Source: Planctomycetota bacterium (GTDB taxonomy: Bacteria > Planctomycetota > UBA11346). From it: 64,000 nucleotides of DNA. The notes under the pieces are model-generated. The model searched no databases, was not told the DNA's origin, and was given only the letters and a program-made list of their open reading frames with translations. The stretch lies in contig JANPIY010000208.1 of the NCBI GenBank assembly GCA_031425255.1, forward strand, positions 6,955 to 70,954. Direction: 5' to 3'. How positions within the stretch are numbered: position 1 is the first letter of the stretch; each line of letters opens with the position of its first letter. The position numbers and the translations under genes are program-made. This document shows positions 3,263 to 64,000 of the stretch, piece by piece.

Positions 3263-4537
3263 TCACGGCGCCAGCGGATCGAGCGGGCCGAACAGCGGCC
3301 AGCAGGTATCGGTACGGCGATTCCCGCCGTCACCCCGCCCGTCGGGACCGACGCTGTAGGCGCCGCGCACCACCCCCTCCACCAGGATGGGCCGCATGAT
3401 CCCGCCCGCGGGATCGAACCAGTCGACGGGCCAAGGCTCCTCGCGCAGCACGGCGGCCACCAGCTGCGCCCGCAACCAGAGGCGGATGGTATGGTCGACT
3501 TCCCAGCCCCGCGCCCATTCGTTCAGCGAGTGGCCCACCCATAAGGAGGGCTTGGCCATCTCGGTCCATGGAATGGGACGTGGATAGTCGTACCTGAGCT
3601 TGGCCTCGGCACGGACGGCACGGAGGTCGTTGCGGTGGTCGCGCAGGAACCCCGCCCATTCCAACTCGCGAACGAGAAATCCTCCCCGTCCGCCACGCAT
3701 GACCAGCGAGCCGATGACCGGCCACCGGTAGAAATCGAGCATGGTCAGGCCGGAGCTGCGGATCCGTTCATCCGGATCGTCAAAGAAATCGAGGTGCTTG
3801 ACCAGATCGCCGACCTGCGCGCCCGCCAGTTGGGCGCCAGGGTCATCGACCAGGGTCAGCAGGTGATCGGCATAGTCCCGCCGCAATTCGCGCTCCAGGT
3901 CGGCAAGACGATACAGCAGCACCTGGATGAGTTTGTAGAGCGCGGTCGCGCGCACATCGCGATCCGCCCTCGCGACCGGCGGACTCCGCTGCGCACTCTG
4001 CAGCAGACGCTTCAGGAGGACCGGCAGCTCCTCGCGCGGCGCGCCCAGGGCCTGCAGATGCAGCAGGGACAAGGGACGTATCCCCTCCCCCTGGGTGGCC
4101 ATGGTCAAGTTTTCCTCCAGGATCACCGGCTCATCGCCCAGAGCATCGAGGAGCGTTCCCATCTCGCTCAAGCGTGCGCGTGGCAATGCCGCCATATGTG
4201 CATGGTAGGTTTCCGGGAGTGGCGTCCCGGGAATGCCAAAGTTTTTCGGTATGTTGAAATAAGCGGACATGTTCAGGTCGTTGACGACTACCGCCAGGCG
4301 TTCGCGCAGACGGCAACGCTCCTCGGCTGAGCGTTTGCGTCCCATCTCGCTTCCACTGGTGGGAAATCCGGCCGCCGCGACTTGTTCGCGGACCGCGAGC
4401 AGATCGCCGCGCGAATGTAGCCACAGCGTCAGGGTCAGCACCGCGACCACCACCAGACCGCCGCTCCATTTGGCCAGGAACCACCAACCGCTGCGCCGAC
4501 GTGGCGCCAGACTCGGAGCGACCGCTGGGGTGTTCAT
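3263..4537 (-). CDS. hypothetical membrane-anchored protein (N-terminal TM helix, large extracytoplasmic domain)
   Basis: ORF 3263..4855 trimmed to the ATG at 4537 (MNTPAVAPSL...), which overlaps the trpD stop as ATGA. The hydrophobic segment WWFLAKWSGGLVVVAVLTLTLWL follows the start. No family recognised. Confidence 0.75.
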   Translation of the reverse strand: MNTPAVAPSLAPRRRSGWWFLAKWSGGLVVVAVLTLTLWLHSRGDLLAVREQVAAAGFPTSGSEMGRKRSAEERCRLRERLAVVVNDLNMSAYFNIPKNFGIPGTPLPETYHAHMAALPRARLSEMGTLLDALGDEPVILEENLTMATQGEGIRPLSLLHLQALGAPREELPVLLKRLLQSAQRSPPVARADRDVRATALYKLIQVLLYRLADLERELRRDYADHLLTLVDDPGAQLAGAQVGDLVKHLDFFDDPDERIRSSGLTMLDFYRWPVIGSLVMRGGRGGFLVRELEWAGFLRDHRNDLRAVRAEAKLRYDYPRPIPWTEMAKPSLWVGHSLNEWARGWEVDHTIRLWLRAQLVAAVLREEPWPVDWFDPAGGIMRPILVEGVVRGAYSVGPDGRGDGGNRRTDTCWPLFGPLDPLAP

Positions 4538-48428: not shown

Positions 48429-49454
48429 TCAACCGACGGCGTGGTAGGTCGTCCCGCGCGTCTTGCCGCGCATGGTGGCATGACCGTTCACGACCAGTTG
48501 CCGCAGGAGCGCGCGTACGATGACGGCTTTCCAACCGAGCGCGACCTGGGCCTCGGCACAGGTCAATACCTGCGACCGCTGCAGGAGGCGCAGCAGACGC
48601 GCTGATGGATCCTGCGCCGGTTTCTGTCTCGTGACGCTCACGCTGGCCGCTGCCGGAGCGGACGGTTTGACCGTCTTCGCTGCCACCTTCATGACCAGGC
48701 CGCTGCGCTTCTGACCGCCTTGGCCGGCTGGTGGCGTGCTGACGTCGGCCTCCATTTCCAGTCCGAACAACGCGCCAACCTCCGCCACTGCGAGCGTCCG
48801 GCCGGAACCCGGACCGGTGGTCTTCGCCAGCAACCCCACGCCCGCCTGGGCCAGCAGGTCGGTGGGGTTGGTCTGACGCAAAGTGAACAGCAGCTCCGGC
48901 TGGTGATCGAGTCGCGCGCCGACCCCGTACAGCACGGCTGCGGCATGTTTGCACAGGTACGACCCGTCCGGACAGCTGCATTCCACCCGGATCTGCTTGG
49001 GCGAGGGGAAGAGCCCGTCGTCCTGGTGGCACAGGCGCTCCATCACCGCGGCAGCGAAATGGCCCTGCAGGAGTTCGACCAGCGAATCGATACCGCCGGC
49101 GCATGCCGTGCAGAGCTGCGCCCAGGCGGTCTTTTTCAGCGGGGCTATGGTGATGGTGACCCGGTACATGGACGAGCCGCTGATGTGGGCTGCGATCCGT
49201 CCTGGTGCCACCTGCAGGTCCACGACCGAGCCGTTGCGCGCGTAGGTGCGACCGCGCGGCAGGCGGTTGGCGTAATCGCTATAGGCTTCCAGATGCGTAC
49301 ACCACGCCTTCCCCCACACGGTGGTGGCGATCGCGCGGCCCGTGATCACCACCGGCGATACCGGGTGGCCTTTCTTGGCCAACCGGGCCATCGCCGCCGC
49401 GGCGTTCTTGCGGCGTTCAGCGACCGGTACATAGGGGGCCCATTCATAGAACAT
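48429..49454 (-). CDS. SWIM zinc-finger protein with a C-terminal winged-helix-like region
   Basis: 'VECSCPDGSYLCKHAAAVLY' is a CxC...CxH SWIM motif. The N-terminus 'TTVWGKAWCTHLEAYSDYANRLPRGRTYARNG' is typical of SNF2-associated SWIM proteins. Confidence 0.85.
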   Translation of the reverse strand: MFYEWAPYVPVAERRKNAAAAMARLAKKGHPVSPVVITGRAIATTVWGKAWCTHLEAYSDYANRLPRGRTYARNGSVVDLQVAPGRIAAHISGSSMYRVTITIAPLKKTAWAQLCTACAGGIDSLVELLQGHFAAAVMERLCHQDDGLFPSPKQIRVECSCPDGSYLCKHAAAVLYGVGARLDHQPELLFTLRQTNPTDLLAQAGVGLLAKTTGPGSGRTLAVAEVGALFGLEMEADVSTPPAGQGGQKRSGLVMKVAAKTVKPSAPAAASVSVTRQKPAQDPSARLLRLLQRSQVLTCAEAQVALGWKAVIVRALLRQLVVNGHATMRGKTRGTTYHAVG

Positions 49455-49456
49455 GT

Positions 49457-52165
49457 TCAGGCCTCAGCGCTGGCGGTAGAGAGGTCGAGACTCACGAGTT
49501 TCAGCAACTCGTCATTAGAAAGGGCCGTGAGGTCGGGCTCGCCGCGGCGATGATCGTCGAGCAGGTCATCGGAGAGCGCGCGTTTCGAGGCCATCATGGC
49601 GTCGATCTTCTCTTCGATGGTGCCACGACAGACGAATTTATGCACCAGGACCTGACGCGTCTGGCCGATGCGGAAGGCACGGTCGGTGGCCTGGTTCTCC
49701 ACCGCGGGGTTCCACCACCGATCGAAGTGGATGACGTGCGATGCGGCGGTGAGGTTCAAGCCGGAACCGCCCGCCTTGAGCGACAACACGAAGAAGGGCA
49801 CGGACTGGTCCTCTTGGAAGCGCTGCACCAGGTCCTTTCGTTCCTTCACTGCCGTTTCTCCGGTGAGTACCAGCCCTGGACGGCCGAAGATCGCACCCAG
49901 GAACGCGGCCAGAGGTGCGGTGGTTTCACGGAACTGCGAGAACACCAGCATCTTCTCCTGCTTTGCCGCGATGACCTCGGCGAGTTCGCGCAGACGGGCG
50001 AGCTTACCGCTGTCGGCCTCGGCCCAGGCACCATCACCGAGCCAGTGCGAGGGATGATTGCAGATCTGCTTGAAGCGCATGAGGAACGCCAGGACGACTC
50101 CTTTGCGTTTGATACCGTCCAGGTCATCGCCGGCCAGCGTCTTGGCGAGTTCGCCCACCCCTTGCTGGTACAACGCCGCCTGCCGCCGCGACAACGCGCA
50201 GAATGCCGTGAGTTCGATCTTGTCCGGCAGATCGCTGATCACCGACTTGTCGGTTTTGAGCCGCCGCAGCAGATAAGGCTGCACCAGGGCGCGTAGCGGC
50301 GCATACCCCCGTGGCGTACCGGCGAGGCTCTTGGTGAAGGTGGTGAAGGCCTTGGCGCTGCCGAGCAAACCGGGGTTGATGAAATCGACGATCGACCACA
50401 GGTCGCTCAGGCGGTTTTCGATCGGTGTGCCCGTCAAAGCGATGCGCGACTGGGCGGTCAGTTGCTTCACCGCGCGCGTCTGCCGGGTGCCCGGGTTCTT
50501 GATCGCTTGTGCTTCATCGAGCACCGCCAACCGCCAGCGGGTGGCACCCATCCATGACAGGCGACCGAGCGCGCCGTAGCTGGTGATGACCAGATCGAAA
50601 GCCGCCATGCCCGATGCCGTCAGGGCTTTCAATGCCTCACCCGGCATTGCCGAGGGATGTGCGACCAGCACACGCAGGGACGGTGCGAAGCGGGCGACCT
50701 CCTGCGCCCAATTGGCGAGCAGTGATGCCGGAGCCACCAGCAGGTTGGGGGCGCTCCCCTCCGTCTGCTTCCGCACCAGCAACAGAGCGATGATCTGGAT
50801 GGTCTTCCCCAGACCCATGTCGTCGGCCAGGCACGCACCCAGACGGAGGCGGGAAAGCAGGTGCAACCAGCGGACACCGACTTGTTGATACGGCCGCAAG
50901 GTGGCGTGCAGGTCCCGGCCGGGGTCGACCGCGACCAGCCCCTGGGGTCCGCGCAGGCTCTGCAGGGTCTCCGCCAGCCAGGGGCCGGCGACCACCTGCG
51001 ACCACTCGGCCTCGATGCGCATGCCGGGATCGTCTGGCGCCACGCCGGCACCAGCCAGCAAGCGCATCGCGGCGTGGAAACCCAGACCCTTCTGCCGCGC
51101 CACCGCTTCGACCTGCTTGAAGTGATCGAGCGTCTTTTCCAGACGGGCGCGATCGACCTCCACCCAGCGGCCACGGATCAGCACCAGATCCTGGGAGCCG
51201 GCGAGCAACTGGCCGGCTTCCGTGGCCGTCAGCGGCTCGCCGTCGAGCGCGAGGTCGATGGTGAAATCAAGCAACGCATCCTGTCCGAGCTGCGTTGGGG
51301 CTGTGGCGCCCACGGTGGCCTTGACCTGCGCACGCGCCGGCCGGTTCGCACGCCAGGTCGCCGGCATGCGGACGATCAGGCCGGCCTGTTCCAGCTGCGG
51401 CACATCGTGGAGGAATTGCAGTGCTTCAGCAGCGGACCAGCGCAGCGGATGAAAGATCTCACGGCTGTCGATCAACGCCTTCAGCCAGGCGCAGCGCTCG
51501 CCGGCGCGCTGCAACGGCACCAATAGCGCCAGCAGGCGATCCTTGTTCGCCGTGCCGGCGAATTCCTGCAGGGCCTGCCCCAACGGCTGATGCTGGGTCT
51601 TCGCCTGCGCCGACAGCCGCGTGGTGTAGGTCGCCAGGAAGGCAAACGGCTGGTGCTCATCTTTGCGGTTTTCGGCCAGGTGCACGTGCACCCGACCGAC
51701 CAGATGCCAAGCGGGATTGCGCGACTGCAGGAATGCCGGCAACGGCTGACGCGCACTGGCGAACTCGTCGGTGAACGCCTCACCGAGTCCCGACCACAAC
51801 TCCTGCAGGAGTTCGGCGGTGAGGTACTCGGCGCCCGCCATGGGCGGAGCGGTGGCGACCAGACTCCTCAACTCGTCGAGGAGCGGCGCGGGAGGACAAG
51901 GGACGGTCTGCTGCGAAAGGTCCGGCAGCATGCACAACGCCGAGACGAAACGCGCTGAGAGATCACGCCACCAGGCGATCACCGGCGGCAGCGCCACTCC
52001 GATGTCGCACATGCCCATGGACAACAGGCCATGACCAGTGCCGCTAGTGAAGGCGGCGAGCAGGCGCGTCCGCATGGCCACCGGCAGCGGCGCATCATCG
52101 CCATCGAGGGTCAGGATGAGCTGGCCGCGCGGAGTCAGTGCGAGGGAGTGGCCGCGATCGTTCAA
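49457..52165 (-). CDS. SNF2-family helicase/ATPase with a bacterial SNF2-helicase-associated N-terminal domain
   Basis: 'LADDMGLGKTIQIIALLL' (motif I), 'LAVLDEAQAIKN' (DExx), 'LTGTPIENRL', C-terminal 'LKAGGSGLNLTAASHVIHFDRWWNPAVENQATDRAFRIGQ'. The TTG start overlaps the upstream stop (TTGA). The alternative internal ATG is at 52075. Confidence 0.92.
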   Translation of the reverse strand: MNDRGHSLALTPRGQLILTLDGDDAPLPVAMRTRLLAAFTSGTGHGLLSMGMCDIGVALPPVIAWWRDLSARFVSALCMLPDLSQQTVPCPPAPLLDELRSLVATAPPMAGAEYLTAELLQELWSGLGEAFTDEFASARQPLPAFLQSRNPAWHLVGRVHVHLAENRKDEHQPFAFLATYTTRLSAQAKTQHQPLGQALQEFAGTANKDRLLALLVPLQRAGERCAWLKALIDSREIFHPLRWSAAEALQFLHDVPQLEQAGLIVRMPATWRANRPARAQVKATVGATAPTQLGQDALLDFTIDLALDGEPLTATEAGQLLAGSQDLVLIRGRWVEVDRARLEKTLDHFKQVEAVARQKGLGFHAAMRLLAGAGVAPDDPGMRIEAEWSQVVAGPWLAETLQSLRGPQGLVAVDPGRDLHATLRPYQQVGVRWLHLLSRLRLGACLADDMGLGKTIQIIALLLVRKQTEGSAPNLLVAPASLLANWAQEVARFAPSLRVLVAHPSAMPGEALKALTASGMAAFDLVITSYGALGRLSWMGATRWRLAVLDEAQAIKNPGTRQTRAVKQLTAQSRIALTGTPIENRLSDLWSIVDFINPGLLGSAKAFTTFTKSLAGTPRGYAPLRALVQPYLLRRLKTDKSVISDLPDKIELTAFCALSRRQAALYQQGVGELAKTLAGDDLDGIKRKGVVLAFLMRFKQICNHPSHWLGDGAWAEADSGKLARLRELAEVIAAKQEKMLVFSQFRETTAPLAAFLGAIFGRPGLVLTGETAVKERKDLVQRFQEDQSVPFFVLSLKAGGSGLNLTAASHVIHFDRWWNPAVENQATDRAFRIGQTRQVLVHKFVCRGTIEEKIDAMMASKRALSDDLLDDHRRGEPDLTALSNDELLKLVSLDLSTASAEA

Positions 52166-52599
52166 TGAGTCATCCCTGGCATTTCGTCCTCGGGCGCGGC
52201 GTCGACCACGGTGATTCCCAGATCCGCGGCCCAGGCGAGCAGAACGTGGCGGGTAGCGGCTTCTTCATAGCGATGCCAACGCTCCAACAGCCCACGGTCA
52301 GCCAGCAGATGCTTGTAAGCCCGCCACCCGCCGCGTCGGGAGAAGCACCGGACGACATCCTCATGCAGCGGTGGGCATTCGTCGGCCACGAAGGCCAACA
52401 CCAGTCGCTGTTTCAGATCGAGTTCCCTGGCATCGGGCAGGAGGTGCCAGCCGGTCTCATCGGCGGGGGGAGGGCCGTCACCTTGACCATCGTATAACAC
52501 CCTGACCTGACCGGTCTGGCCATGGATCCACGAGCGCGCATCGTGGCTGGCATCGCGGGCCATGAACGCGCTTTCCAGGTCCGTCCATCTCACAGGCAT
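52162..52599 (-). CDS. hypothetical 145-aa protein translationally coupled to the SNF2 helicase
   Basis: ATG at 52599. Its stop overlaps the helicase start. Possibly UPF0158-like; this is a weak impression only. Confidence 0.6.
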   Translation of the reverse strand: MPVRWTDLESAFMARDASHDARSWIHGQTGQVRVLYDGQGDGPPPADETGWHLLPDARELDLKQRLVLAFVADECPPLHEDVVRCFSRRGGWRAYKHLLADRGLLERWHRYEEAATRHVLLAWAADLGITVVDAAPEDEMPGMTH

Positions 52600-52693
52600 G
52601 GCTTGCGGTCTCCGACGCGGGTGAGCGGGCTTCGCCTGAAATCTGGAAGACGCGGTCCGGGCGATATAGCGACAGCATGCGGCAAGCGTCCAC

Positions 52694-53161
52694 TCATCCG
52701 CTCATCTCCGGCCCCGCCGACGGCCCAGGGAGGCCAGCCACCACGTCGGCGTCCGAACGGTCGGGGTCGATGCAGTCGGCGATGATGTGGTCGGCGAGTT
52801 CGCTCAGGTACTGGCTGAGTACGGCATTCATCTCCTGGAACTCCGGCCACAGATCGCGATCGACCTGCGCCCAGGTGAGGCGCACGCACACCGAGGTCCG
52901 GCGCATGCGCGGATAACGATAGGGTTTGAGGCCCTTGCTGCGGCACAACGCCAGGAACAGCCGCAGCGACCAGGGATTGGTCAGGGAAAAACGGTATTCG
53001 ACCGCCGGTTCGACCGCGGGCCCCGCTGACTCCCCGAGATCGAGGCGGCTCTGCATGCGTTCTATCGCCGCTTGCGCCGCCTGCCGCTCACCGGCGGTGG
53101 TGGCCCCGGCGAAGAGTGCTTTGATCTTTGCCAGACGTTCGCGGATCTGCTGCGCATCCAT
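52694..53161 (-). CDS. hypothetical 155-aa protein with a DUF2786-like N-terminal helix
   Basis: 'QQIRERLAKIKALFAGATTAGERQAAQAAIERMQSRL' resembles the DUF2786 pattern (kI.kLLala....nEaeaA...a..L). The remainder is unassigned. Confidence 0.55.
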   Translation of the reverse strand: MDAQQIRERLAKIKALFAGATTAGERQAAQAAIERMQSRLDLGESAGPAVEPAVEYRFSLTNPWSLRLFLALCRSKGLKPYRYPRMRRTSVCVRLTWAQVDRDLWPEFQEMNAVLSQYLSELADHIIADCIDPDRSDADVVAGLPGPSAGPEMSG

Positions 53162-53484: not shown

Positions 53485-54174
53485 TCACCCCTTTGCGGAG
53501 GCGAATGCCTCCGCCAGCAGCTCGAGCACCACTGCGGCGTGATCGCTGCCCTGCCCGGACGGTTCCAGCTTCATCGCCGTCAGACCGCCCTCGATCTCCA
53601 GGATCGCCAAGCCGTGGACCGCGGCGAGCGCGAGCAGCAGGCGCGGCTGCAACCGCGCCGAGGCGCGGTTGCGGAAGCCCAGGAAGTCCTGCATCGCCTC
53701 CGACACCAGCAGCCAATTTGCGCCGCGCGCGTCCATGAGGTCCTGGTTGCCGGCATCGAGCAGATCCGAGCGCCACATCAGGCGGAACCATTCCCGGTGT
53801 TCGCGGGCGAAGCCCAGGTAGGCCAGCCCGGTCGCCTGGAGGCGCAGGAACGGGTTCTTGCCCGCAGACTCCAATCCGGCGAGCTGGCGTTGATTGAGCG
53901 CTTCGCAACCCGCGGTGGCGATCGCCGTCAGCAGGCCGCGCAGCTCGGGGAAATGATTGATCGGCGCGGCATGCGACACCCCCACCGCGCGCGCCACCGC
54001 GCGGATGGTGAGCCCGGCGAGGCCCTCGCGTTCGAGGACGTGCACCCCCGCCGCCACCAGCGACGCGCGCAGGTTGCCATGATGATAGGCCTTGCGCCGG
54101 CGGACGGGGGCCTTGCTGACGGGCGGCTTGCGGGTGCTCACGCGTGCATCGTGGCGGCCTCTCGCCACGATCAA
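53485..54174 (-). CDS. TetR/AcrR-family transcriptional regulator
   Basis: HTH region 'AYHHGNLRASLVAAGVHVLEREGLAGLTIRAVARAVGVSHAAPINHF'. Start uncertain: TTG 54174 or in-frame GTGs a few codons downstream. Confidence 0.88.
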   Translation of the reverse strand: MIVARGRHDARVSTRKPPVSKAPVRRRKAYHHGNLRASLVAAGVHVLEREGLAGLTIRAVARAVGVSHAAPINHFPELRGLLTAIATAGCEALNQRQLAGLESAGKNPFLRLQATGLAYLGFAREHREWFRLMWRSDLLDAGNQDLMDARGANWLLVSEAMQDFLGFRNRASARLQPRLLLALAAVHGLAILEIEGGLTAMKLEPSGQGSDHAAVVLELLAEAFASAKG

Positions 54175-54228
54175 ATATTGACAGCGACAAGATCAGGCCA
54201 CAGGATCAGATCTTGTCGCTGTCAATAT
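54175..54228. promoter_or_regulatory. 20-bp perfect inverted repeat pair (candidate TetR operator) in the divergent tetR/ABC intergenic region
   Basis: ATATTGACAGCGACAAGATC (54175..54194) and its exact reverse complement GATCTTGTCGCTGTCAATAT (54209..54228), 14-nt spacer. Each arm contains TTGACA. The right arm ends on the first in-frame ATG of the permease ORF. Confidence 0.65.
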
Positions 54229-55402
54229 GCAGCACCCGGGAAGGCGTGGGACGGCGATGGGCATGTTACGGATCGCCTGGGCGATGCTCACCGCCGACCG
54301 CACCAAGTTCCTCGGCATGGTCGCCGCCGTGGCTTTCGCCACCTTGATGCTGCAGAACCAGACCTCGATCTTCGCCGGCATCATGCTGCGTACCGCCCAC
54401 CAAGTGCTCGACGTGGCCGAGGCCGACCTCTGGATCATGGATCCGGGCACGCGTTACTTCGACGAGACGCGCGGGCTGCCGGGGGGCGCGGTCGAACGCG
54501 TGCGCGCGGTCGCTGGCGTTGCCTGGGCGGTGCCGCTGCGCAAGCGCAACGCCACCCTGCGCACAACCGACGGGCGTTTCCGCCAAGCGCTGGTGATCGG
54601 CGTCGACGACGGGAGCCTGGTCGGCATGCCGCGGCGGATGGTTCTGGGCGCGGCTGAAGACCTGCGCCAGCCGGATGCGATGATCATCGATCGCGCGGGC
54701 TTCATCGAACTGTTCCCTGGTCAGCCGCTCGCGCTCGGTGCGGTGGTGGAGAGCGGCGATCAGCGCCTGGTGATCGTCGGCATCAGCGAGGCCTCCGCGC
54801 CGTTCGCACCCTTCCCCATCGTGCATGTGCGCGGGACGGTGGCCGCGCTGATGCCGGTGCCACCACGCGAGGACATCTCCTTCGTCGTCGCCAGCGCCGC
54901 CAAGGGCCACGCGCCGACGGCGCTCGCCGAGGACATCGCCCGTGCCACCGGCCTGCGCGCGCGCACCACCGCCGACTTCAGCTGGGACTGCATCGATTTC
55001 TACCTCGGCAATACCGGCATCCCGGTGAACTTCGGCATCACCATCGCGCTGGCGGTGCTGATCGGGGCGGCGGTCTCCGGGCTGACCTTCTCGCTGTTCG
55101 TGCGCGACAACCTCAGCGCCTTCGCCGCACTCAAGGCCATCGGCGTGACCAACCGCGGCATCCTGGGCATGGCCCTGTTCCAGGCGCTGGCGGTGGTGGC
55201 GATCGGCTGTGCGCTGGGCACCGGCATGTCGGCGGTGTTCTTCGAGATCCTCAGCACGCAGATCGCGACCCGCGGTATCACCATGCCGGTCTCCATCACC
55301 CTCGGCGCCGTCGCGGTCCTGCTGACGGTAGTGGTCGCCGCCAGCGCAGCCAGCATCCGCAGCGTGCTACGCCTGGATCCAGCCGAGGTCTTCCGCGCAT
55401 GA
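54227..55402 (+). CDS. ABC exporter permease, FtsX-fold, DevC-like size (~390 aa)
   Basis: N-terminus 'MLRIAWAMLTADRTKFLGMVAAVAFATLML' plus a short periplasmic domain and 3 C-terminal TM helices. Start is 54227, 54257 or 54263. The stop overlaps the ATPase start (ATGA). Confidence 0.85.
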   Translation: MQHPGRRGTAMGMLRIAWAMLTADRTKFLGMVAAVAFATLMLQNQTSIFAGIMLRTAHQVLDVAEADLWIMDPGTRYFDETRGLPGGAVERVRAVAGVAWAVPLRKRNATLRTTDGRFRQALVIGVDDGSLVGMPRRMVLGAAEDLRQPDAMIIDRAGFIELFPGQPLALGAVVESGDQRLVIVGISEASAPFAPFPIVHVRGTVAALMPVPPREDISFVVASAAKGHAPTALAEDIARATGLRARTTADFSWDCIDFYLGNTGIPVNFGITIALAVLIGAAVSGLTFSLFVRDNLSAFAALKAIGVTNRGILGMALFQALAVVAIGCALGTGMSAVFFEILSTQIATRGITMPVSITLGAVAVLLTVVVAASAASIRSVLRLDPAEVFRA

Positions 55403-56109
55403 CTCCCCCCGCGGTCGAACTGGAGGCGGTGACCAAGTCCTTCCCCTCGCCCGAGGGCGAGGTCGCGGTGCTGCGCGGCGTCACGACCAGCATCCTGCCC
55501 GGCGAGATGACCTTCCTCACCGGACCCTCCGGCTGCGGCAAGACCACGCTGCTGAGCGCGATCGCCGGCATGCTGCGCATCGCCAGCGGCAGCATCCGCC
55601 TGCTCGGGCACGACCTCGCCAGCCTGCGCGGCGATGAGCTGGTGCGCCTGCGCCGGCGGCGGATCGGCTTCGCCTTCCAGCAGTACCACCTGCTGGGCGC
55701 CCTCAACGCGGTGGAGAACGTCAGCGTGCCGCTGATCGCCGATGGCCGCCCACGTCGCCACGCCGAGGCGGTCGCCGCGGCGATGCTGACCCGCCTCGGC
55801 CTCGGCGGCAAACTCCAGCTCACGCCCAAACAGTTGTCGGGCGGCCAACAGCAGCGCGTCGCCCTGGGCCGGGCGCTGGTACATGAACCCGACCTGGTGC
55901 TGTGCGATGAGCCCACCGCAGCCCTCGATCACCGCTCCGGGGACGCGGTGATGGAGCTACTGCGCGCCATCGCGGTCGCTCCAGGGCGCGCGGTGGTGGT
56001 GGTCACCCACGATGCGCGCATGTACCGCTTCGCCGATCGCATCCTCGACATGGAGGACGGCCGCATCACCGCCGATAGCCGTCCCAGCCCCGTCCTGCCG
56101 TCCGCTTGA
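55399..56109 (+). CDS. ABC transporter ATP-binding protein (DevA/MacB-NBD/LolD-like)
   Basis: Walker A GPSGCGKTT, signature LSGGQQQRVALGRAL, Walker B LVLCDEPTAALD. Confidence 0.93.
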   Translation: MTPPAVELEAVTKSFPSPEGEVAVLRGVTTSILPGEMTFLTGPSGCGKTTLLSAIAGMLRIASGSIRLLGHDLASLRGDELVRLRRRRIGFAFQQYHLLGALNAVENVSVPLIADGRPRRHAEAVAAAMLTRLGLGGKLQLTPKQLSGGQQQRVALGRALVHEPDLVLCDEPTAALDHRSGDAVMELLRAIAVAPGRAVVVVTHDARMYRFADRILDMEDGRITADSRPSPVLPSA

Positions 56110-56116
56110 GGTCCCC

Positions 56117-57109
56117 ATGCGCCTATCACGTTCCCCCCTGCTGCTAGTCGTCGCGCTGATGTCGGTGGTATTCGCCGCCTGGTCGATCAACCACCTCGAC
56201 GTGCAGCGGGTGGTGGCCGCGCCGGTCGGCACGCCGACGCCGGGCGGGACGCTGGCCGCCACCGGCATCGTCGAACCCACCGGACGCACCTCGCGCCTGG
56301 GCGCGTCGGCGACGGGCCTGGTGACGCGCGTCCTGGTGGCGGTGGGCGATGCCGTGACTGCCGGGCAGCCGTTGCTCGAACAGGATCGCCGCGTCGCCCT
56401 GGCGGCGGTGGCGCGCGCGCGTGCCGAGGTCGAACGCCTGGAGGCACTGCCCCGCGTGGAGGACCTCGCGCAGGCGGAAGCCACCCTCGCAGTCGCGGCG
56501 GCACAGGATAGCGAGGCGCAGGCGCGTCGTGACGAGGCGCGGGCGCTCACCGAGCCCGGCGCGCTCAGCGCGGCCGAACGCGATCGCCGTGAACGCACCG
56601 CGCAGGCCGCCCTCGCCAACCGCGCGGCGGCGCAGGCCGCCCGCGACCGCGTCGCGGCCGGCGCCTGGGCTCCCGACCTGAGGGTGGCACGCGCCGAGCT
56701 GCAACGGGCCGAGGCGATGGCCGAGCTGCTGATCACCCGCGCGCCGCAGTCCGGCACCGTGCTCCAGGTCAATGCGCGCCTGGGCGAGCCGGCCGATCCC
56801 CTGGCGATGGTTCCGCTGGTGGTCATTGGCGACACCAGCGGCTGGCGCATCCGCGCCGCGCTCGATGAGGAGCTGCTGCCCCGCCTGCGCGCGGGCGATG
56901 CCACCGCGCATGTCCGTGGCGCTGGTGGACGGGCGATCCCGTTGCGCTGGCTCGCGAACGACCGCCTGCTGGTGCCCAAGACCACCCTCACCGGCAACCC
57001 CAGCGAACGCGCCGACACGCGGGTGCTGGAGATCCTCTTCGACATCGCCATTCCCGATCACGGCCTGGTCGCCGGGCAGGTGGTCGATGTGCGCTGGAAC
57101 GGGCCATGA
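56117..57109 (+). CDS. HlyD/DevB-family periplasmic membrane-fusion protein
   Basis: GAGG SD 5 nt before the ATG at 56117. N-terminal anchor MRLSRSPLLLVVALMSVVFAAW, coiled-coil hairpin region, beta-barrel C-terminus. ORF 56012 trimmed. Confidence 0.85.
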   Translation: MRLSRSPLLLVVALMSVVFAAWSINHLDVQRVVAAPVGTPTPGGTLAATGIVEPTGRTSRLGASATGLVTRVLVAVGDAVTAGQPLLEQDRRVALAAVARARAEVERLEALPRVEDLAQAEATLAVAAAQDSEAQARRDEARALTEPGALSAAERDRRERTAQAALANRAAAQAARDRVAAGAWAPDLRVARAELQRAEAMAELLITRAPQSGTVLQVNARLGEPADPLAMVPLVVIGDTSGWRIRAALDEELLPRLRAGDATAHVRGAGGRAIPLRWLANDRLLVPKTTLTGNPSERADTRVLEILFDIAIPDHGLVAGQVVDVRWNGP

Positions 57110-58575
57110 ACAGCGGCGCCCGCTTGCCGACGCTGGCACTGGGTGGCGCGCTGATCGCCCTGCTCGGCGGTTGCGCCGTGGTCGGCCGGGATGCGCAGCC
57201 GCCCGACACCGCCTTCATCGACGACGCGCTCGACGAACCCACACGCGCGGCCGATGCCGGGGCCGCGCAGGGCGAGGCGCTCACCGCCTGGTGGCAGGTT
57301 TATCGCGATCCCACGCTCGACGCCCTGGTGGCGTTGACGGTGACGCAGAACCGCGACCTGCGCGCGGCGTGGGAACTGGTGCGCGCGCAGCGCGCGCTGG
57401 TGGTGGGTGCCGAGGCCGCCGGCCGGCCGCAGGTGGATGCGCTCGGCGATGCCACCCGCCGTGGACGCGGCACGGCCCTGCCGACCGACGGCTATGACCG
57501 CGTCGGCAACCGGTACCAGGCCGCGCTGGTGGCAGGCTGGGAGCTCGACCTGTGGGGCATGGTCCAGCGTCAGGTCGAACAGGCAGTTGCCGGAGTCGAT
57601 GCCGCCAGCGCCGAGGCCCAGGGGCTGCGCCAGGGACTGATCGCGGAAACCGTGCGCTCCTACCTCGCGCTGCGTCATGCCGAGGCGGACACCATGCTGG
57701 CGCGCACGGATCTCGCGGCGGCCCGGCGCCTGCTGCGCCTGCACGATTCCCTGCGCCAGGGCGGCATCGCTAGCGATGCCGCCAGCGACGCCGCCGCCCA
57801 GGAGGTCGAGCTGGCGGTGCAGGCGCTCGCCGCCATGCAGGCCCGGCACGAGACCGCCCTCCGCCGTCTCGCGGTGGCGTGCGGTCGGCCGCCGGCACTG
57901 CTACCGCTCGCCCCAGGTGCGTTGCCATTGCCGGGCAGCGGACTGCCGGCGCTGGTGCCCGCCGAGCTGTTGCGGCAACGGCCGGATCTGCGCGCGCTTG
58001 AGCAGCGCACCGCCGCGCGCATCGCCGCGGCCGGCGTGGCCGAGGGCGACCTCTACCCCCGCGTACGGCTCATCGGAGACCTCGGCCTGACCGCCCAGGT
58101 CCCATCCGACCTGGCGCAACGCGATGCGTCGTTCTGGTCCTTCGGCCTGTCGGTGCAGTGGGCGCTGTTCCGCGGTGGCGCGGTGCGCGCGGGCATCGCC
58201 GCCGCCGATGCCCGCAGCGCCGCTGCCCTGGCCAGCTACGAACAGGCGGTCCTGCGCGCGGTTGGCGAAGTCGGCACGGCGACGGCGGACTGGCAGGCCG
58301 CCGGCCAGCGCCTGGAGTCCAGCACCAGCGAACTGCGCCACGCCGAACGCGCGCTCGCGCACGCGCAACAACGCCAGCGCGCCGGCATCGCCGCCGAGGA
58401 GGAGGTGCTCGCCGCTACGCGCACGCGCATCACGGTGGAACGCCGGGGCCTGGGGCTCCGCCGCGAGCGCGGCGATGCCTACGTCGCCGTGCTCACCGCG
58501 CTGGGCTGCGGCTGGCAGCCCGATCCCGCCGGAGAACCCGCGTCGGCGCAGCCGCTACGCGCGAACGCGCCCTGA
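57106..58575 (+). CDS. outer-membrane efflux factor lipoprotein (NodT/TolC family)
   Basis: ATGA overlap with the MFP stop. Lipobox LLGGC. Two repeated OEP-type helical halves ('RTDLAAARRLLRL...', 'AERALAHAQQRQRAGIAAEEEVL'). Confidence 0.88.
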   Translation: MNSGARLPTLALGGALIALLGGCAVVGRDAQPPDTAFIDDALDEPTRAADAGAAQGEALTAWWQVYRDPTLDALVALTVTQNRDLRAAWELVRAQRALVVGAEAAGRPQVDALGDATRRGRGTALPTDGYDRVGNRYQAALVAGWELDLWGMVQRQVEQAVAGVDAASAEAQGLRQGLIAETVRSYLALRHAEADTMLARTDLAAARRLLRLHDSLRQGGIASDAASDAAAQEVELAVQALAAMQARHETALRRLAVACGRPPALLPLAPGALPLPGSGLPALVPAELLRQRPDLRALEQRTAARIAAAGVAEGDLYPRVRLIGDLGLTAQVPSDLAQRDASFWSFGLSVQWALFRGGAVRAGIAAADARSAAALASYEQAVLRAVGEVGTATADWQAAGQRLESSTSELRHAERALAHAQQRQRAGIAAEEEVLAATRTRITVERRGLGLRRERGDAYVAVLTALGCGWQPDPAGEPASAQPLRANAP

Positions 58576-58600: not shown

Positions 58601-58723
58601 GAACACAGAGCACCAGAGAACCCGAGGAGATAGGGATTTGCGCCGAAGGCTCTCACCAAAGGGGGGAGCACGGTGCCTTCGTCCAGCGTATTCTCCGCTC
58701 TGGTTCTCTGGTGCTCTGTGTTC
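58601..58723. repeat. 22-bp perfect inverted repeat enclosing a ~79-nt structured core (REP/MITE-like element or bidirectional terminator)
   Basis: GAACACAGAGCACCAGAGAACC (58601..58622) and GGTTCTCTGGTGCTCTGTGTTC (58702..58723). Inner pairing GAAGGC (58645..50) with GCCTTC (58675..80). It lies between the convergent OMF and PKS genes. Confidence 0.85.
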
Positions 58724-58743: not shown

Positions 58744-61700
58744 CTAATTCATCAAGACCGGTATCTCCGCCGCATCCCCCGAGGGCGTGCCCAGGCGCAG
58801 GCAGCCGTCCACCAGCACCTGCGGCAGGGCGGCCGGCAGCCACTGGCCATCGGCGGCGGGCTTGAACCACTGGGCGTGATGTTCGCCCCATGCGAGCTTC
58901 GTCAGCTGGCCTTCGCTCCCCTCGCGGAAGTAGTCGACATGCAGGCGGATGCCCTGGGCGTGGAGCGCAACCAGCGCGATACGGATCAGGATAGTGTCGA
59001 AGGGCATCGCCTCGCGCAGGTGGTCGACCTTGGTGTAGGTGCAGCGCAATTCGCCAGCGGCGCCAACGCCACGCAGCAGTTCGGGCGCCATGCGCTGGAA
59101 ACAGGTGTCGACGATGCGTCCCTGCCAGAGGTAGTAATTGGCGAAGTAGATGTTCCCGACCAGGTTCGCATCCTCCAGCGTGGTGTGGAAACGCTGCTCG
59201 TGCAGGACCACGCGTCCGACCGGACCATGCACGCTCTGCCGCACAACCGGACCCAGGCCGGCGCTGGCGCCGACCTCCCACGGCTGCTCGGCGGCGACCA
59301 CCGGGGCGATGCGGGCGATGAACTCCTGGTAGTAGGCCGGGAAGGGCCGCGCAGCCACCAGGCCATGATCGAGGATCTCGACCCAGGTCGCGGTCATCTT
59401 GCTGCGGCCCAGCAGGACGCGCTCGCCGGATGCGCGTTCCGCGCTCCATTCATAACACAGGTCCATGGTCGAGGCGCTCGGGCCGTATACCCGGTCGAGC
59501 CACACCCGGCCTTCGATGACGTCGCAGGTCGAGGCGCTGCCGAGGATGCAGGTCTCGGAACGGTTGGTCACCATGCCCCAGCGACCGCTGCTGAACTGCT
59601 CGACCAGGGCAGCGTAGACCGGTTGGCAGGCGGCTTCGCGCAACTTGCCCATCCACATGGCGAAATGGCTGAAGTACAGATTGCGACTGAGATGCGCGGT
59701 CTCGCGGAAGGTGAGCGGAAAACGCAGGGTGAAGGCGAGCTGGCCCTGGAGCGCGAGATCGAAGCGCATGCCATAGACGTGGGGCGCGAAACCCGCTGGC
59801 TGCGCCGTCTCGCTGGGCGCGGGCGGCACGGCCATCACCGGCGTCACCGGCGTCACCGCCACCGCGCCCACCACCACCGCGATCAGCCGCTGCGGCCCAC
59901 GCCGCCCGCACCAGGGCAGCGTCAGGACGGCCAAGCGTCCGCCGCTGGCGGTGGCCCCGCTCAGCAGTACCGCGGTGTCGCGTCGCGCGGTTATGGCGAG
60001 GTCGAGGATGACGCCGCCACCAGCCTTGCGCACGGCCTCCGCCGCCGCCCACAAGCGGGTCCCGGCGATGTCGAGGCCGCCGCCGCCAGCCACTAGTGCC
60101 GTGAGCAGCGGCGCGTTCGCGCTGCCGATCAGCGCCAGCCAATCGTCGTGGTCCTGACGATGGGTCACCGGCGCGACGTCGCAGCCCTGATCGCCAGCGC
60201 CGACCACCACCAGGCAGGCGCGCTCATCATGCGCGACCGAGACCCCGAAGCCCTCCACGCCGGCCAGCGTGGGCCGATGGTCGGCGGCCCACACCACCTC
60301 GGCACCAACCAGATCCGCGGCCGCCAGCGTCGCCGTCAGCAGCGGCCGTTCGGCGAGGCGCCGCGCGGCGCGATCCGGTCCATGCCAGTCGCCATAGGCC
60401 AGCGTCAGGAACGGCACGCGCACCCCGAGCGCGCTGGCGGCGTGGTCTAGGCGTTGACGCAGGTCGCCGCTGTCGAACGCATCCGGGTCGGCGATCTGCT
60501 CGGGCGTCGGATGGTCGTCACGACGTTCGAGCACCGCCAAGCGGTAGCCCGTGATCCGCTCCAGGAGCCGGCCGTGCTCATCGCCCACCGTCACGTGCGC
60601 CAGCAGCTGGCGGTCGTTACCGGGCACCGCGCCGTCGAAGACCGCTTCGCCCTGGCGGGCGATCGGCGCCGGTCGTGCCACTGCCTCGGGCTGCCATACG
60701 CGCAGCTCGATGCGGGCGATATGCACCGGCAGGCTCAGCTGCTGCGACACCGTCAATTGCGGCGCCTGCAGCAGGGAATCGCGGAAATACGGATCACCGA
60801 GCAGGTACGTCTCCTCGCCATCCGCCGCGACGCGGTAGTCGCGTTGTTCGGAGGTGAAGGTGCAGGTGTGCGAATCCAGGGTATGGATATGCCGCAGGCG
60901 CTGGAAGCGCGGCCCTTGAAACAGCAGCCAGCTGTAGAGATCCTGCCGCGGGTCGATGGGCAGCGGCTGGGCGGAGAAGACCGGCAGAGCGGCGGGCGTC
61001 GACACCGGCGCCGCGAACACCAGGGTCGCGGTGAAGTGATCGCGCGCGAAACCGGTGGCCTCGCTGGTGATGCCGACGTGGACGCGATAAGGGCTGGTGT
61101 GGTCCGCGCGTTCCTCGACGCGCGCGCGCAAGGCGATGAGCGTGCCCTGCCGCTGGTCGACCACGATCGGACGTTCGAGGTGGATGTCCTCGATGGTGAG
61201 CGCGGCGATGACCGGCAGGCCGAGCACCCAGGCCGCGGCCTGGGCCATGGCTTCCAGGCCGAACACGGTGGGGAACAGGGCCGAGCCCTTGTAGATGTGG
61301 TCGGCGACGTAGGGATCGCGGGCCAGGGTCAGCCGGGTGCGCACGCGCAGCTCGACGCCGGGAATGAAGCCCTGGACCTCGTCGAGGTAGCGTGCCGCCA
61401 TTGGCTTCGCCGGCACCAGCGGGATCCAGGTGTCGAGGCCGCCGAGCGGCGCGCTGATGATGACCTCGCTGCTGCCGGGATCATGGCTGACCAGTTTGAG
61501 GAAGCGGTCGATGCCCTCGCGCGGCGGGATGGCGCCGATGCCCAGGCGCGCGAGATGCTGATCGCTGCCCATGCGCGCACCCATGCCGACCTCGGCCCAC
61601 ACGCTGTAGGCCAGCGAGATGACGTGGGTGCCCGGATGATCGTGCGCGAAGGCGCGAAGGAGCTGCGCCAGGGTCTCATTGGAGAAGGCGTACCACGCGT

Positions 61701-64000
61701 TGCCGGCCATGCCGGAGATGCCGATGATCGAGGAGAAGCCGACGATCAGCCTGGGCGGCGTCGACGCGAGCGCCGTCAGCAGATTGAGCGCGCCCTGGAC
61801 CTTGGGACCGACCTCGGCCAGGGCCACGGCGGCGGTCGCCTGGTCGGCGCGCCGCGGCTTATTGATCGCGGCGCCGTGGATCAGACCGGTGATCGCTCCG
61901 AGCTCACGACGCACATCCGCCACCAGCCCGTCGACCGCCTTGGCATCGACCACATCGCACTGGTAATAACGCGCGGTGAGGCCCGCCTCGTGGAAGCGCG
62001 CCAAGGTGGCGCGCACCTCCTCGCCCGCCGGCGAGCTGCCGACCAGGACCATGCGCACGCCGGTGGCCTGCGCCTGCGCCAAGGCGCAGGCGGCAGTGAT
62101 CCCGCGTGCACCACCGCTGACCAGCACCACGTCGCTGCTGTTCCAGGCCAGTTCGCGTGGCGACCACGACACCGGCTCCGTCAGCACTGACCTGGGTACC
62201 CGGCGCGTGCGCTGGAGATCGTAGGCCGCCCGCGCATAGCGCACGCTGCCGGCCAGTTCCGCCACCACTAGCGGCGCGAGGTCGGCCACTGGCAGGGTTG
62301 GATCGGCGTCGATCACGCGCACGCGCAGGTCGGGTCGTTCCAGGTGCAGGCTGGCGGCGAAGGCACCGGTGCCGGCCTGGGCGAGGCCGGCGGTTCCACC
62401 GGCGCCGAACTGCACGATGGCCAGGAGCGGCTGGGCGCCACCCGCATGCGCGCGCGCCACCGTGGCGAGGGCGTGCAACCGTGCGACTGCGATATCCAGA
62501 CGCGGCTGGGCGGCGTCCTCGCGGCACAGCAGGCCAATGCGGTGGGAATACTGCGGATCGCTGAGCACGTCCGTGCCAAGCGCAACGGCATAGGTGCAAC
62601 TGCGCACCTCGGCAGCCGCGGCGAGCAACGCGGCGCGCAGGACGGCGACCAGGTCGGCCTCGCTCTCCTCGTGCAGCAGCAGCACGCGCGCACCACGCAG
62701 ACCATCGCCGGGCATGGCCGCCAGCGGCTCCGGCACCAACTCCATGCGGAAGCAGCGCACCCAGTCGGAGACCTCGACCGGCGGCGCCAGCGGGCTGGCG
62801 GATGCCACCGGCGCGAGCAGCTCGGCGAAGGCACGGGCGATGTCGCCTAGCGTGGCATTGGCGTACAGCGAGGCGTCGACCGCCGCAGTCAGCCCGACGG
62901 ATTTCGCCCCCGCCGCGACCAGTTCGCCGGCCTTGATCGAATCGAGGTTGAGATCGTCGAGCAGGCGCAGGCCGAGGCGCAGCCCCGCGCGCGCGAAGCC
63001 GGTGCGCTGGGCGACGAGGTCGAGCAACAGCGAGCCGATCGCGGCACTATCAGCGGTGGTCGCGGTGACGGCCTGCGGCAGTGGCGCGCTCGCGACGCCC
63101 ACCGGCAGCGCGCCGCTCAGGGCCTCGGCCACCTCATGCAGCGTGGCATTGGCGAACAGGCTGGGATCGATGCCGCTGGCGATGCCGAGTTCACGCGCCG
63201 CGCTGCCGACCAGTTCCGCCGCCTTGATCGAGTCGAGATTGAGGTCATCGAGCAGGCGCAGGGTGGGCCGGATGCCGGCCAGCGCGAAACCGGTGCGCGC
63301 CGCCACCAGCGCCATCAGCCGGGTTTCGATGGCCTGGCTGGTGACGGGCAGTGCGGCGGGCAATGCGGCGGGCAATGTGGCGAGCAGTGCCGTCGACACC
63401 CCCGTGACCACGCGCCCGGTGGACGGCGGCACGGTAGCGGTGACCGCCGGCTGGGACAGACCAGGGAGGTCGAGGTCGGCGCGGATCACCTGACCGAGGA
63501 AGGTGCCACGGCGCGCGAGGTAGTCGCCGAGCACGCCGGATTCCATCCCGCTGAGCGCGGCCAGCGTCGCCACCGTGCCGCCATCTCCTGCCGTCAACGC
63601 CAGTGGCGTCCAGGCCTGGGTCGGACGGAACGGCCGCTCGCAGGGATTGTCGATGAAGCGTTTGTGCGTGGTCGGCGTGAACGGGCGGATCAGGCGGTCG
63701 CGGTGGAGCTCCGCCCAGGCGATGGTGTGGCCACCGCAGAACGCGCGCGCGAGCACCGCCTGGAGATCGCGGTCGTTACCAGGACGCGCGGCCACCGGCA
63801 GGCACAACTCGCGGTCGAGCGTATCGCGCATGAGCCCGCTGAGCACGCGGCCCGGGCCGACCTCGATGACATGATCAACCTCCCGCGCCAATTGCGTGGT
63901 GATGGCGACGAAATCCACCGGCGCGGCGATCTGCCGCCCGACATGCTCGCGCAGCGGCAGCTGCGCGGTGATGGCCTGGCCGGCGATCCCCGAGTGCAGC
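58744..64000 (-). CDS. iterative type I polyketide/secondary-lipid synthase, C-terminal >1750 aa (N-terminus outside window): AT(part)-ACP-ACP-KR-DH-PPTase-like-4HBT-4HBT
   Basis: By hand translation the frame stays open from 63918 to the window edge (...GIAGQAITAQLPLREHVGRQIAAPVDFVAI...). Domain motifs are listed in the sub-features below. Confidence 0.9.
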   Translation of the reverse strand, partial: LHSGIAGQAITAQLPLREHVGRQIAAPVDFVAITTQLAREVDHVIEVGPGRVLSGLMRDTLDRELCLPVAARPGNDRDLQAVLARAFCGGHTIAWAELHRDRLIRPFTPTTHKRFIDNPCERPFRPTQAWTPLALTAGDGGTVATLAALSGMESGVLGDYLARRGTFLGQVIRADLDLPGLSQPAVTATVPPSTGRVVTGVSTALLATLPAALPAALPVTSQAIETRLMALVAARTGFALAGIRPTLRLLDDLNLDSIKAAELVGSAARELGIASGIDPSLFANATLHEVAEALSGALPVGVASAPLPQAVTATTADSAAIGSLLLDLVAQRTGFARAGLRLGLRLLDDLNLDSIKAGELVAAGAKSVGLTAAVDASLYANATLGDIARAFAELLAPVASASPLAPPVEVSDWVRCFRMELVPEPLAAMPGDGLRGARVLLLHEESEADLVAVLRAALLAAAAEVRSCTYAVALGTDVLSDPQYSHRIGLLCREDAAQPRLDIAVARLHALATVARAHAGGAQPLLAIVQFGAGGTAGLAQAGTGAFAASLHLERPDLRVRVIDADPTLPVADLAPLVVAELAGSVRYARAAYDLQRTRRVPRSVLTEPVSWSPRELAWNSSDVVLVSGGARGITAACALAQAQATGVRMVLVGSSPAGEEVRATLARFHEAGLTARYYQCDVVDAKAVDGLVADVRRELGAITGLIHGAAINKPRRADQATAAVALAEVGPKVQGALNLLTALASTPPRLIVGFSSIIGISGMAGNAWYAFSNETLAQLLRAFAHDHPGTHVISLAYSVWAEVGMGARMGSDQHLARLGIGAIPPREGIDRFLKLVSHDPGSSEVIISAPLGGLDTWIPLVPAKPMAARYLDEVQGFIPGVELRVRTRLTLARDPYVADHIYKGSALFPTVFGLEAMAQAAAWVLGLPVIAALTIEDIHLERPIVVDQRQGTLIALRARVEERADHTSPYRVHVGITSEATGFARDHFTATLVFAAPVSTPAALPVFSAQPLPIDPRQDLYSWLLFQGPRFQRLRHIHTLDSHTCTFTSEQRDYRVAADGEETYLLGDPYFRDSLLQAPQLTVSQQLSLPVHIARIELRVWQPEAVARPAPIARQGEAVFDGAVPGNDRQLLAHVTVGDEHGRLLERITGYRLAVLERRDDHPTPEQIADPDAFDSGDLRQRLDHAASALGVRVPFLTLAYGDWHGPDRAARRLAERPLLTATLAAADLVGAEVVWAADHRPTLAGVEGFGVSVAHDERACLVVVGAGDQGCDVAPVTHRQDHDDWLALIGSANAPLLTALVAGGGGLDIAGTRLWAAAEAVRKAGGGVILDLAITARRDTAVLLSGATASGGRLAVLTLPWCGRRGPQRLIAVVVGAVAVTPVTPVMAVPPAPSETAQPAGFAPHVYGMRFDLALQGQLAFTLRFPLTFRETAHLSRNLYFSHFAMWMGKLREAACQPVYAALVEQFSSGRWGMVTNRSETCILGSASTCDVIEGRVWLDRVYGPSASTMDLCYEWSAERASGERVLLGRSKMTATWVEILDHGLVAARPFPAYYQEFIARIAPVVAAEQPWEVGASAGLGPVVRQSVHGPVGRVVLHEQRFHTTLEDANLVGNIYFANYYLWQGRIVDTCFQRMAPELLRGVGAAGELRCTYTKVDHLREAMPFDTILIRIALVALHAQGIRLHVDYFREGSEGQLTKLAWGEHHAQWFKPAADGQWLPAALPQVLVDGCLRLGTPSGDAAEIPVLMN
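58849..59787 (-). other. PKS domains: two tandem 4HBT/YbgC-type hot-dog thioesterase folds (approximate)
   Basis: The second fold has 'TLEDANLVGNIYFANYYLWQGR' (YbgC-like DxN..G.vy..Y). The first has 'RETAHLSRNLYFSHFAMWMGK' and lacks the Asp. Confidence 0.65.
59884..60471 (-). other. PKS domain: Sfp-type phosphopantetheinyl-transferase-like region with altered metal-binding motif (approximate)
   Basis: 'GVSVAHDERACLVVVGAGDQGCDVAPV' (cf. SxSH...GxDxE) and 'RLWAAAEAVRKAGGG' (cf. WxxKEAxxK). Confidence 0.55.
60514..61386 (-). other. PKS domain: PS-type dehydratase (double hot-dog), approximate
   Basis: 'ADHIYKGSALFP' = HxxxGxxxxP; second half 'GDPYFRDSLLQ' = DxxxQ. Confidence 0.8.
61429..62136 (-). 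other. PKS domain: ketoreductase catalytic subdomain (approximate)
   Basis: Rossmann 'VVLVSGGARGITAA', 'LIHGAAI', 'GNAWYAFSNETL' (Y..N). Confidence 0.8.
62815..63045 (-). other. PKS domain: ACP 2 (approximate bounds), tandem duplicate of ACP 1
   Basis: 'LRLLDDLNLDSIKAGELV'. Flanking sequence is parallel to ACP 1. Confidence 0.8.
63109..63336 (-). other. PKS domain: ACP 1 (approximate bounds)
   Basis: 'LRLLDDLNLDSIKAAELV', phosphopantetheine Ser in an LDSIK context (PUFA/PKSE-like). Confidence 0.8.

Follow-up and report, generated by a model that had tools for sequence, protein, structure and literature searches.

A predicted TetR-gated, split-MacB efflux system beside a putative enediyne-PKSE-like synthase in a planctomycete genome

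Introduction

Among the described ATP-binding cassette (ABC) exporters, MacAB-TolC (E. coli, A. baumannii, A. actinomycetemcomitans) and DevBCA-HgdD (Anabaena sp. PCC 7120) come closest to the tripartite pump described here, which is encoded at positions 53485-58575 of a 64,000-nucleotide stretch of planctomycete DNA (the window; contig C208:6955-70954 of the metagenome-assembled genome G000, with 958 contigs, 6.07 Mb, 66% guanine plus cytosine (GC) and 83% completeness). The named relatives of the hisH gene of this genome belong to Planctomycetota. The pump genes lie beside a tetR-family gene and converge on the gene of an iterative type I polyketide synthase (PKS). Both described systems combine a permease and an ATPase with a periplasmic adaptor and a TolC-type channel; in MacB the ATPase is fused to the permease, whereas DevBCA-HgdD, like the window pump, has a separate ATPase and a separate permease of about 380 aa. 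The literature classes DevCA as MacB-type, and the substrates of the MacB family are very diverse (PMC5985334). In Anabaena the operon runs devB-devC-devA, with the gene of the outer-membrane factor (OMF) unlinked (PMC8277102).

Cassettes in the order TetR(CecR-type)-permease-ATPase-membrane-fusion protein (MFP)-(OMF), found in Planctomycetota and Verrucomicrobiota, share the gene order of the window pump. For its regulation, the parallels are ActR/ActA (actinorhodin) and SimR/SimX (simocyclinone), where a divergent TetR and a palindromic operator control an exporter beside polyketide genes. ActA/SimX-like pumps are single-component proteins of the major facilitator superfamily type, and their hosts are Gram-positive.

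The evidence given below makes the window pump very probably a TetR-gated, split-MacB (DevCA-like) tripartite efflux system. We further propose, from gene content and neighbourhood, that it may export the polyketide of the accessory island in which it lies, or protect the producer from it; we put the probability of this at about one half.

Results

The pump is encoded by one plus-strand operon. It starts with a permease gene (54257..55402, 381 aa) whose product is a four-helix FtsX/MacB-type (type VII ABC) protein with a periplasmic domain and without a fused ATPase, followed by the genes of the ABC ATPase (55399..56109, 236 aa), the MFP or periplasmic adaptor (56117..57109, 330 aa, with HlyD_3 and HlyD_D23 domains and an N-terminal membrane anchor) and the OMF (57106..58575, 489 aa, a NodT-type lipoprotein with the lipobox LLGGC). 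The tetR gene (53485..54141, 218 aa) is divergent on the minus strand. The permease stop and ATPase start share an ATGA at 55399-55402, the MFP stop and OMF start another at 57106-57109, and 7 nt (56110-56116) separate the ATPase stop from the MFP ATG at 56117. As the OMF gene ends at 58575 and the minus-strand stop codon of the PKS gene lies at 58744-58746, the gap between them is 168 nt. An earlier note on this DNA had described a divergent tetR and a four-gene exporter operon with its own OMF, two ATGA overlaps (55399, 57106), a 7-nt gap and a 168-nt distance to the PKS; all of these parts were found, and the overlaps and distances were confirmed by reading the sequence. The start codons needed some revision. 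The permease most likely starts at ATG 54257 (MGMLRIAW...) and not at 54227, because its homologues are 378-381 aa long with a conserved N-terminus; ATG 54227 falls within an arm of the candidate operator. The FtsX fold proposed for the permease holds, and its length, formerly put at about 390 aa, is refined to 381 aa. The tetR start is probably GTG 54141, in the same frame as the TTG 54174 chosen before, and the MFP starts at 56117, not at 56012.

The Pfam domains across the cassette (TetR_N with TetR_C_33, FtsX, ABC_tran, HlyD_3/HlyD_D23 and OEP) bear out the reading as a tripartite ABC exporter that comes with a TetR regulator and an OMF of its own. The further label of the earlier note, DevCAB-like, stands only in part: when the DevA, DevB and DevC models were run, they proved to be the best-scoring curated families for the window proteins, but all three scores were far below their cut-offs. 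The permease matched DevC (TIGR01185) from end to end with 50.3-50.4 bits (cut-off 290.35); the ATPase scored 219.8 bits with DevA (TIGR02982, cut-off 295.8), 208 bits with the N-terminal part of MacB and 191 bits with LolD; and the MFP scored 57.2 bits with DevB (TIGR02971, cut-off 129). All 28 aligned members of the permease family also match DevC best, with a top E-value of only 1.9e-41. The OMF is the only pump protein above an NCBIfam cut-off (NodT, TIGR01845, 252.9 bits against 210); this score and its lipobox cysteine identify it as a NodT-family lipoprotein, and its nearest solved relative is OprN (E 1e-58). Membership in DevBCA was rejected because of these low Dev scores and the different gene order, which is C-A-B-OMF in the window against B-C-A with an unlinked OMF in Anabaena. 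The synthase beside the window pump, moreover, is not of the Hgl/Pfa type.

The ATPase has an ABC_tran domain (113 bits) with intact motifs (Walker A GPSGCGKTT, signature LSGGQQQR, Walker B LVLCDEP) and aligns with MacB residues 3-226, while the permease profile aligns with MacB residues 328-642. Since the two proteins align to separate parts of MacB, the contrast between a DevC permease of about 390 aa and MacB of about 650 aa, previously offered as a distinction, reflects only a split as opposed to a fused ATPase. Searched against solved structures, the single permease sequence gave no match, and the profile of its family gave MacB (2.8e-9), Spr0695, HrtB and YtrF. The AlphaFold model of the permease (predicted local distance difference test 86, predicted template-modelling score 0.75) has the topology of MacB, in which a large periplasmic domain separates helix 1 from helix 2, and a Foldseek search with this model gave probability 1.00 for each of MacB, LolCDE, Spr0695, HrtBA and YbbP. 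By structure and by profile alike the permease matches MacB best; the structurally aligned sequences share only about 11-17% identity. The locus therefore has the four-helix FtsX-fold permease, the intact ATPase motifs and the adaptor and OMF partners (in a predicted complex) of a MacB-type pump. What it does not have is the ATPase-permease fusion, here replaced by two genes with an ATGA overlap; its OMF also differs from that of MacAB-TolC in being a NodT lipoprotein encoded in the operon.

As a pump, the system is routine; many Planctomycetota and Verrucomicrobiota have TetR-gated cassettes of the DevCA/MacB type. Those with a CecR-type regulator are 36-56% identical to it in the permease and 47-58% in the ATPase. 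Their regulators are co-directional and carry CecR_C, whereas the regulator in the window is divergent and carries TetR_C_33, and the window permease, unlike theirs, lies in a PKS island and on a long branch. The nearest permeases are 52-56% identical, apart from one 97%-identical protein, and the two named ones are verrucomicrobial. A maximum-likelihood tree puts the window permease together with its 97% twin on a branch 1.33 substitutions per site long; their sister group (100/98 support) is the clade with the two named verrucomicrobial proteins. No excess divergence was seen in the periplasmic domain of the permease, the identity to the sister clade (51-60%) being even over the domains. The long branch and the divergent TetR_C_33 regulator in place of a co-directional CecR-type one fit a re-wiring of the cassette after its recruitment.

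The same genome has a second tetR-permease-ATPase-adaptor-OMF cassette (C761:1567-6868), in which the regulator is co-directional and the permease is 39% identical to that of the window. This is the copy common to congeners and family members: its permease groups with a congener in the tree, and the best permease matches in congeners, 36-40% identical to the window permease, group with the C761 cassette. The genome as a whole has about 16 OMF genes, an unusually rich tripartite efflux set for 6 Mb.

The product of tetR passes the cut-offs of TetR_N (26 bits) and TetR_C_33 (39 bits), and among solved structures it comes closest to 3on2 (E 3e-19), a TetR regulator that is uncharacterised. No DNA homologue of the gene was found in five congeners. 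The spacer between tetR and the permease gene contains a perfect 20-bp inverted repeat, ATATTGACAGCGACAAGATC, with TTGACA in each arm (54175..54228; arms at 54175-54194 and 54209-54228, 14-nt spacer). With a TetR_N helix-turn-helix, a ligand domain and a palindrome in the promoter region from which its gene diverges, the regulator answers to the description of a TetR-family repressor, and the palindrome is its predicted operator. With up to 2 mismatches allowed, this sequence occurs once in the 6.07-Mb assembly. No sigma-70 consensus promoter was called at the operator region, and between 53 and 59 kb of the window no Rfam family, consensus promoter or terminator was found.

The limits of the island were set by comparison with congeners. 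DNA homology to five of them covers the window up to about 53152, where it ends, and resumes at position 4037 of contig C194, just past the halogenase gene, in a gene whose counterparts in four congeners share 78-90% identity with it. The accessory, strain-specific segment between these boundaries is thus about 17 kb long and contains nothing besides tetR, the pump operon, a repeat element and the genes of the PKS, an oxygenase and the halogenase; the pump and PKS, already placed in one locus by the earlier note, lie within one island. In congener G007 (C19) the SNF2 helicase module (window 48850-53152) is joined directly to a homologue of contig C429; here the island comes after the module, with a different conserved gene beyond it, and so the island stands at a synteny break. 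With a genome median of 66.5% GC, the pump has 72.9% (top 0.4% of 5-kb windows) and the PKS 71.0% (top 1.8%). The pump-PKS arrangement is repeated only on the near-identical contig L021, where the proteins are 94-97% identical and the PKS is complete (2570 aa).

In the window, the PKS gene (58744..64000, minus strand) is represented by its 3' two thirds, with ketoreductase, PKS dehydratase and acyl carrier protein (ACP) domains; 2368 aa are encoded up to the end of contig C208, and the N-terminus is on contig C194. The ACP matches CalE8; for the hot-dog domain at the C-terminus the matches are CalE7, DynE7 and the ACP-polyene thioesterase 4i4j, and the thioesterases fused to the synthase are of the CalE7/DynE7/SgcE10 type. 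Judged by these domain matches, the PKS is an enediyne-PKSE-like polyene synthase and not a lipid synthase of the Hgl/Pfa type. The PfaA/Hgl-like partner seen in it by the earlier note was rejected on the PfaA score (168 bits, cut-off 1010), on the enediyne-type ACP and thioesterases, and on pfaD, which was not found in the genome (83% complete). The C-terminal 885 aa had no close match in 40 relatives of the organism, among them 10 congeners. PKS relatives, 2400-2700 aa long, come from a range of bacteria that includes Derxia, Dyella, Rhodococcus, Microcystis and Bryobacterales; those of cultured strains of Rhodococcus erythropolis and R. baikonurensis, of Microcystis aeruginosa and of a Candidatus Electrothrix genome (loci L097-L100, L101 and L102) have the fused double hot-dog C-terminus.

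Upstream of the PKS and in the same direction, C194:1-4036 carries a gene of the RPE65/carotenoid-oxygenase family (358 bits) and a gene for a flavin-dependent halogenase with the motif GWIWIIPF. The comparison covered 19 loci with PKS relatives (16 from genomes, 3 metagenomic); as neither gene is present at any of the 19, both look specific to the island. Genes of the FG-GAP/UnbV_ASPIC and DUF1702 families accompany enediyne synthases. Neither is present in the island, and a search of the genome for DUF1702 gave no match but gave none in control genomes either. At two metagenomic loci (L042:11164-15274 and L043:13514-17434), one gene of each family comes after a PKS relative that is 49-50% identical to the synthase of the window. 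The spacer that separates the halogenase gene from the conserved gene flanking the island (C194, about 4040-4130) contains CTGTCGAAAG-like words, directly repeated four or five times, which could be candidate regulator-binding sites for the biosynthetic operon.

The inverted-repeat element between pump and PKS (58601..58723) has perfect 22-bp arms around a 79-nt core, with a fold energy of -87.8 kcal/mol (z = -6.7), and belongs to no Rfam family. Its arms contain CTCTGGT-like heptamers and end in GTGTTCGATCC. Multi-copy relatives are found in congener G005 (L114-L119), and further copies of the 168-nt spacer element were not found in this assembly, where only one was assembled because repeats probably break assembly. 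The element is a host-type repeat that likely acts as a two-way transcription stop. Elsewhere in the window, 45756-45798 matches many contigs of congener G009 at 95-100%, and 49661-49798 has matches of 73-78% in G002, G004, G005, G007 and G009, which points to more genus-wide repeat families.

Discussion

To hypothesize on its mechanism, a MacB-type permease dimer would work with a separate ATPase subunit, as in DevCA, and form the pump together with the adaptor and a dedicated NodT lipoprotein channel. The pump would expel its substrate from the inner membrane or the periplasm across the outer membrane. The divergent TetR would bind the 20-bp palindrome over the shared promoter region, a pairing predicted from their positions, until a small-molecule ligand frees it from the DNA; pump production would in this way follow demand. 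If, as we infer, this inducer is the product or an intermediate, the proposed logic would be the same as in ActR/ActA and SimR/SimX, with the differences that the window system is a three-part ABC pump across two membranes and that ligand sensing is here a proposal. On this scheme a generic TetR-gated cassette would have been recruited as the export or self-protection arm of a small polyketide cluster, and would not be a co-evolved pair of the DevBCA/Hgl kind.

The link between pump and PKS is supported by the limits of the island and by ordinary gene-cluster logic, and is opposed by the lack of a conserved pairing and of a shared operator. Several observations count against the pump serving the polyketide of the island. 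Starting from the pump, no PKS was found within about 10 kb in the six metagenomic neighbourhoods of the closest permease homologues (53-56% identity), nor in 20 same-phylum neighbourhoods (up to 20 kb), which makes 0/26 related-pump neighbourhoods overall. The conserved unit is regulator-permease-ATPase-MFP(-OMF), as for a general inducible efflux cassette, and one homologous cassette adjoins a second, TetR-regulated pump of the resistance-nodulation-division (RND) type. Starting from the PKS, a MacB/DevC-type permease lies within 10 kb at only 2 of the 19 loci, and the nearest named relatives differ, being verrucomicrobial for the pump and Derxia for the PKS. Within the island, the very stable hairpin most likely insulates pump and PKS as two convergent units, and a copy of the operator was found neither upstream of the halogenase/PKS operon nor elsewhere in the assembly. 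The resident paralogous cassette on C761 also has 70% GC, which weakens the argument from composition, and the genome's OMF genes (about 16, from 28 OEP-domain matches) mean that pumps are plentiful in it.

All six metagenomic contigs in these counts have the regulator-permease-ATPase-adaptor set, with a regulator that is always co-directional (TetR in five, MarR in one) and with the OMF gene next in four. Among 401 genomes of the same phylum, 67 had a permease match at E <= 1e-60 (the best 48% identical), and in the 20 neighbourhoods inspected the permease-ATPase(-adaptor) unit was kept, with an OMF in 11. The open reading frames upstream of the permease at 22 loci contained TetR_N in 18 cases, 15 of them with CecR_C, and MarR in one. 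On the side of the PKS, locus L042 has a permease-ATPase-adaptor set 6 kb from the PKS relative, with a permease only 29% identical to that of the window, and the Microcystis locus (L101) has a weak match to the permease profile (62 bits) 9 kb away, interrupted by the end of the locus. One more PKS-relative locus has an RND pump, and an efflux pump of some kind occurs within 7 kb in two of the three metagenomic PKS relatives (one ABC, one RND), a point in favour of the link. The syntenic make-and-export pair which the earlier note expected across relatives was therefore not recovered (PKS at 0/26 pump neighbourhoods, this pump type at 2/19 PKS loci), and, since the pairing is missing from both directions of search, pump and PKS are largely not syntenic in relatives. 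A dedicated, co-evolved pairing is thus not supported by the relatives, as far as their gene neighbourhoods indicate. Transfer of pump and PKS together from one donor was also considered; the nearest relatives, Derxia (a betaproteobacterium) for the PKS among them, do not support it, and at about 55% identity they are weak evidence either way.

A general inducible detoxification pump, acting on environmental antimicrobials or other xenobiotics and having the PKS as a neighbour by chance in a variable region of the chromosome, is a rival explanation, to which we give somewhat less than an even chance. Cassettes of this kind, mostly preceded by a TetR or MarR gene, are widespread in settings that have no PKS (26 of 26 neighbourhoods), and several homologous copies lie among toxin-antitoxin, transposase or other efflux genes. 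The DevBCA paralogues of Anabaena include drug-resistance pumps (PMC8277102), and the nearest solved relative of the OMF, OprN, is a multidrug channel. The rearrangement of the site with respect to congener G007 suggests a hotspot, and the operator is not common to the PKS operon. However, the island consists of only the pump, its regulator and three biosynthetic genes, both of its halves are GC outliers, and the pairing is kept in a second strain; chance would need two independent insertions side by side.

The analogy drawn by the earlier note was with DevBCA/HgdD; on this model the pump would export a lipid or glycolipid of the envelope, supplied by a synthase of the PfaA/Hgl type. It can point to DevC, DevA and DevB as the top curated families and to Anabaena, where the devBC homologues hgdBC sit within the heterocyst-glycolipid gene cluster (PMC6161253). 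Against these stand the Dev scores far below cut-off, the different gene order, the PKSE-like character of the synthase with its enediyne-type thioesterases, the failure to find pfaD in this 83% complete genome, and an island in which no glycosyltransferase or other lipid-building gene was found. The analogy with heterocyst-glycolipid export is accordingly not supported, and this explanation is very improbable.

Export of a peptide, lipoprotein or other envelope component is conceivable for a family with such diverse substrates (PMC5985334), whose pumps also export toxins, siderophores and dispersin-like proteins, and the structural matches of the window permease include LolCDE and HrtBA. This explanation is very improbable, given that no candidate peptide, siderophore or lipoprotein-sorting gene was found in the island, that the LolC/E models do not match the window permease, and that an OMF and an adaptor of its own suggest a pump that moves its substrate through both membranes.

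Conclusions

Taken together with the proposed role of the pump in export or self-protection, the content of the island suggests, as a tentative picture, that one planctomycete species may have acquired a unit complete with synthesis and export, in which the PKS would make a conjugated polyene, the RPE65-family enzyme would cleave it, the halogenase would halogenate it, and a re-wired pump would sense the product and move it out through both membranes. If true, a tripartite pump of the MacB type would be tied to a product of the PKSE family, a link of which we found no report. For the annotation of such pumps, a best match to the DevA/B/C models, or a permease of 390 aa, is insufficient alone as a sign of glycolipid export. 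The limits of the island are a useful result in themselves, as they define a compact unit of a regulator, four pump genes, a PKS, an oxygenase, a halogenase and one repeat element. The island could be cloned whole, which offers a route to the product of a widespread, uncharacterised family of PKSE-like synthases.

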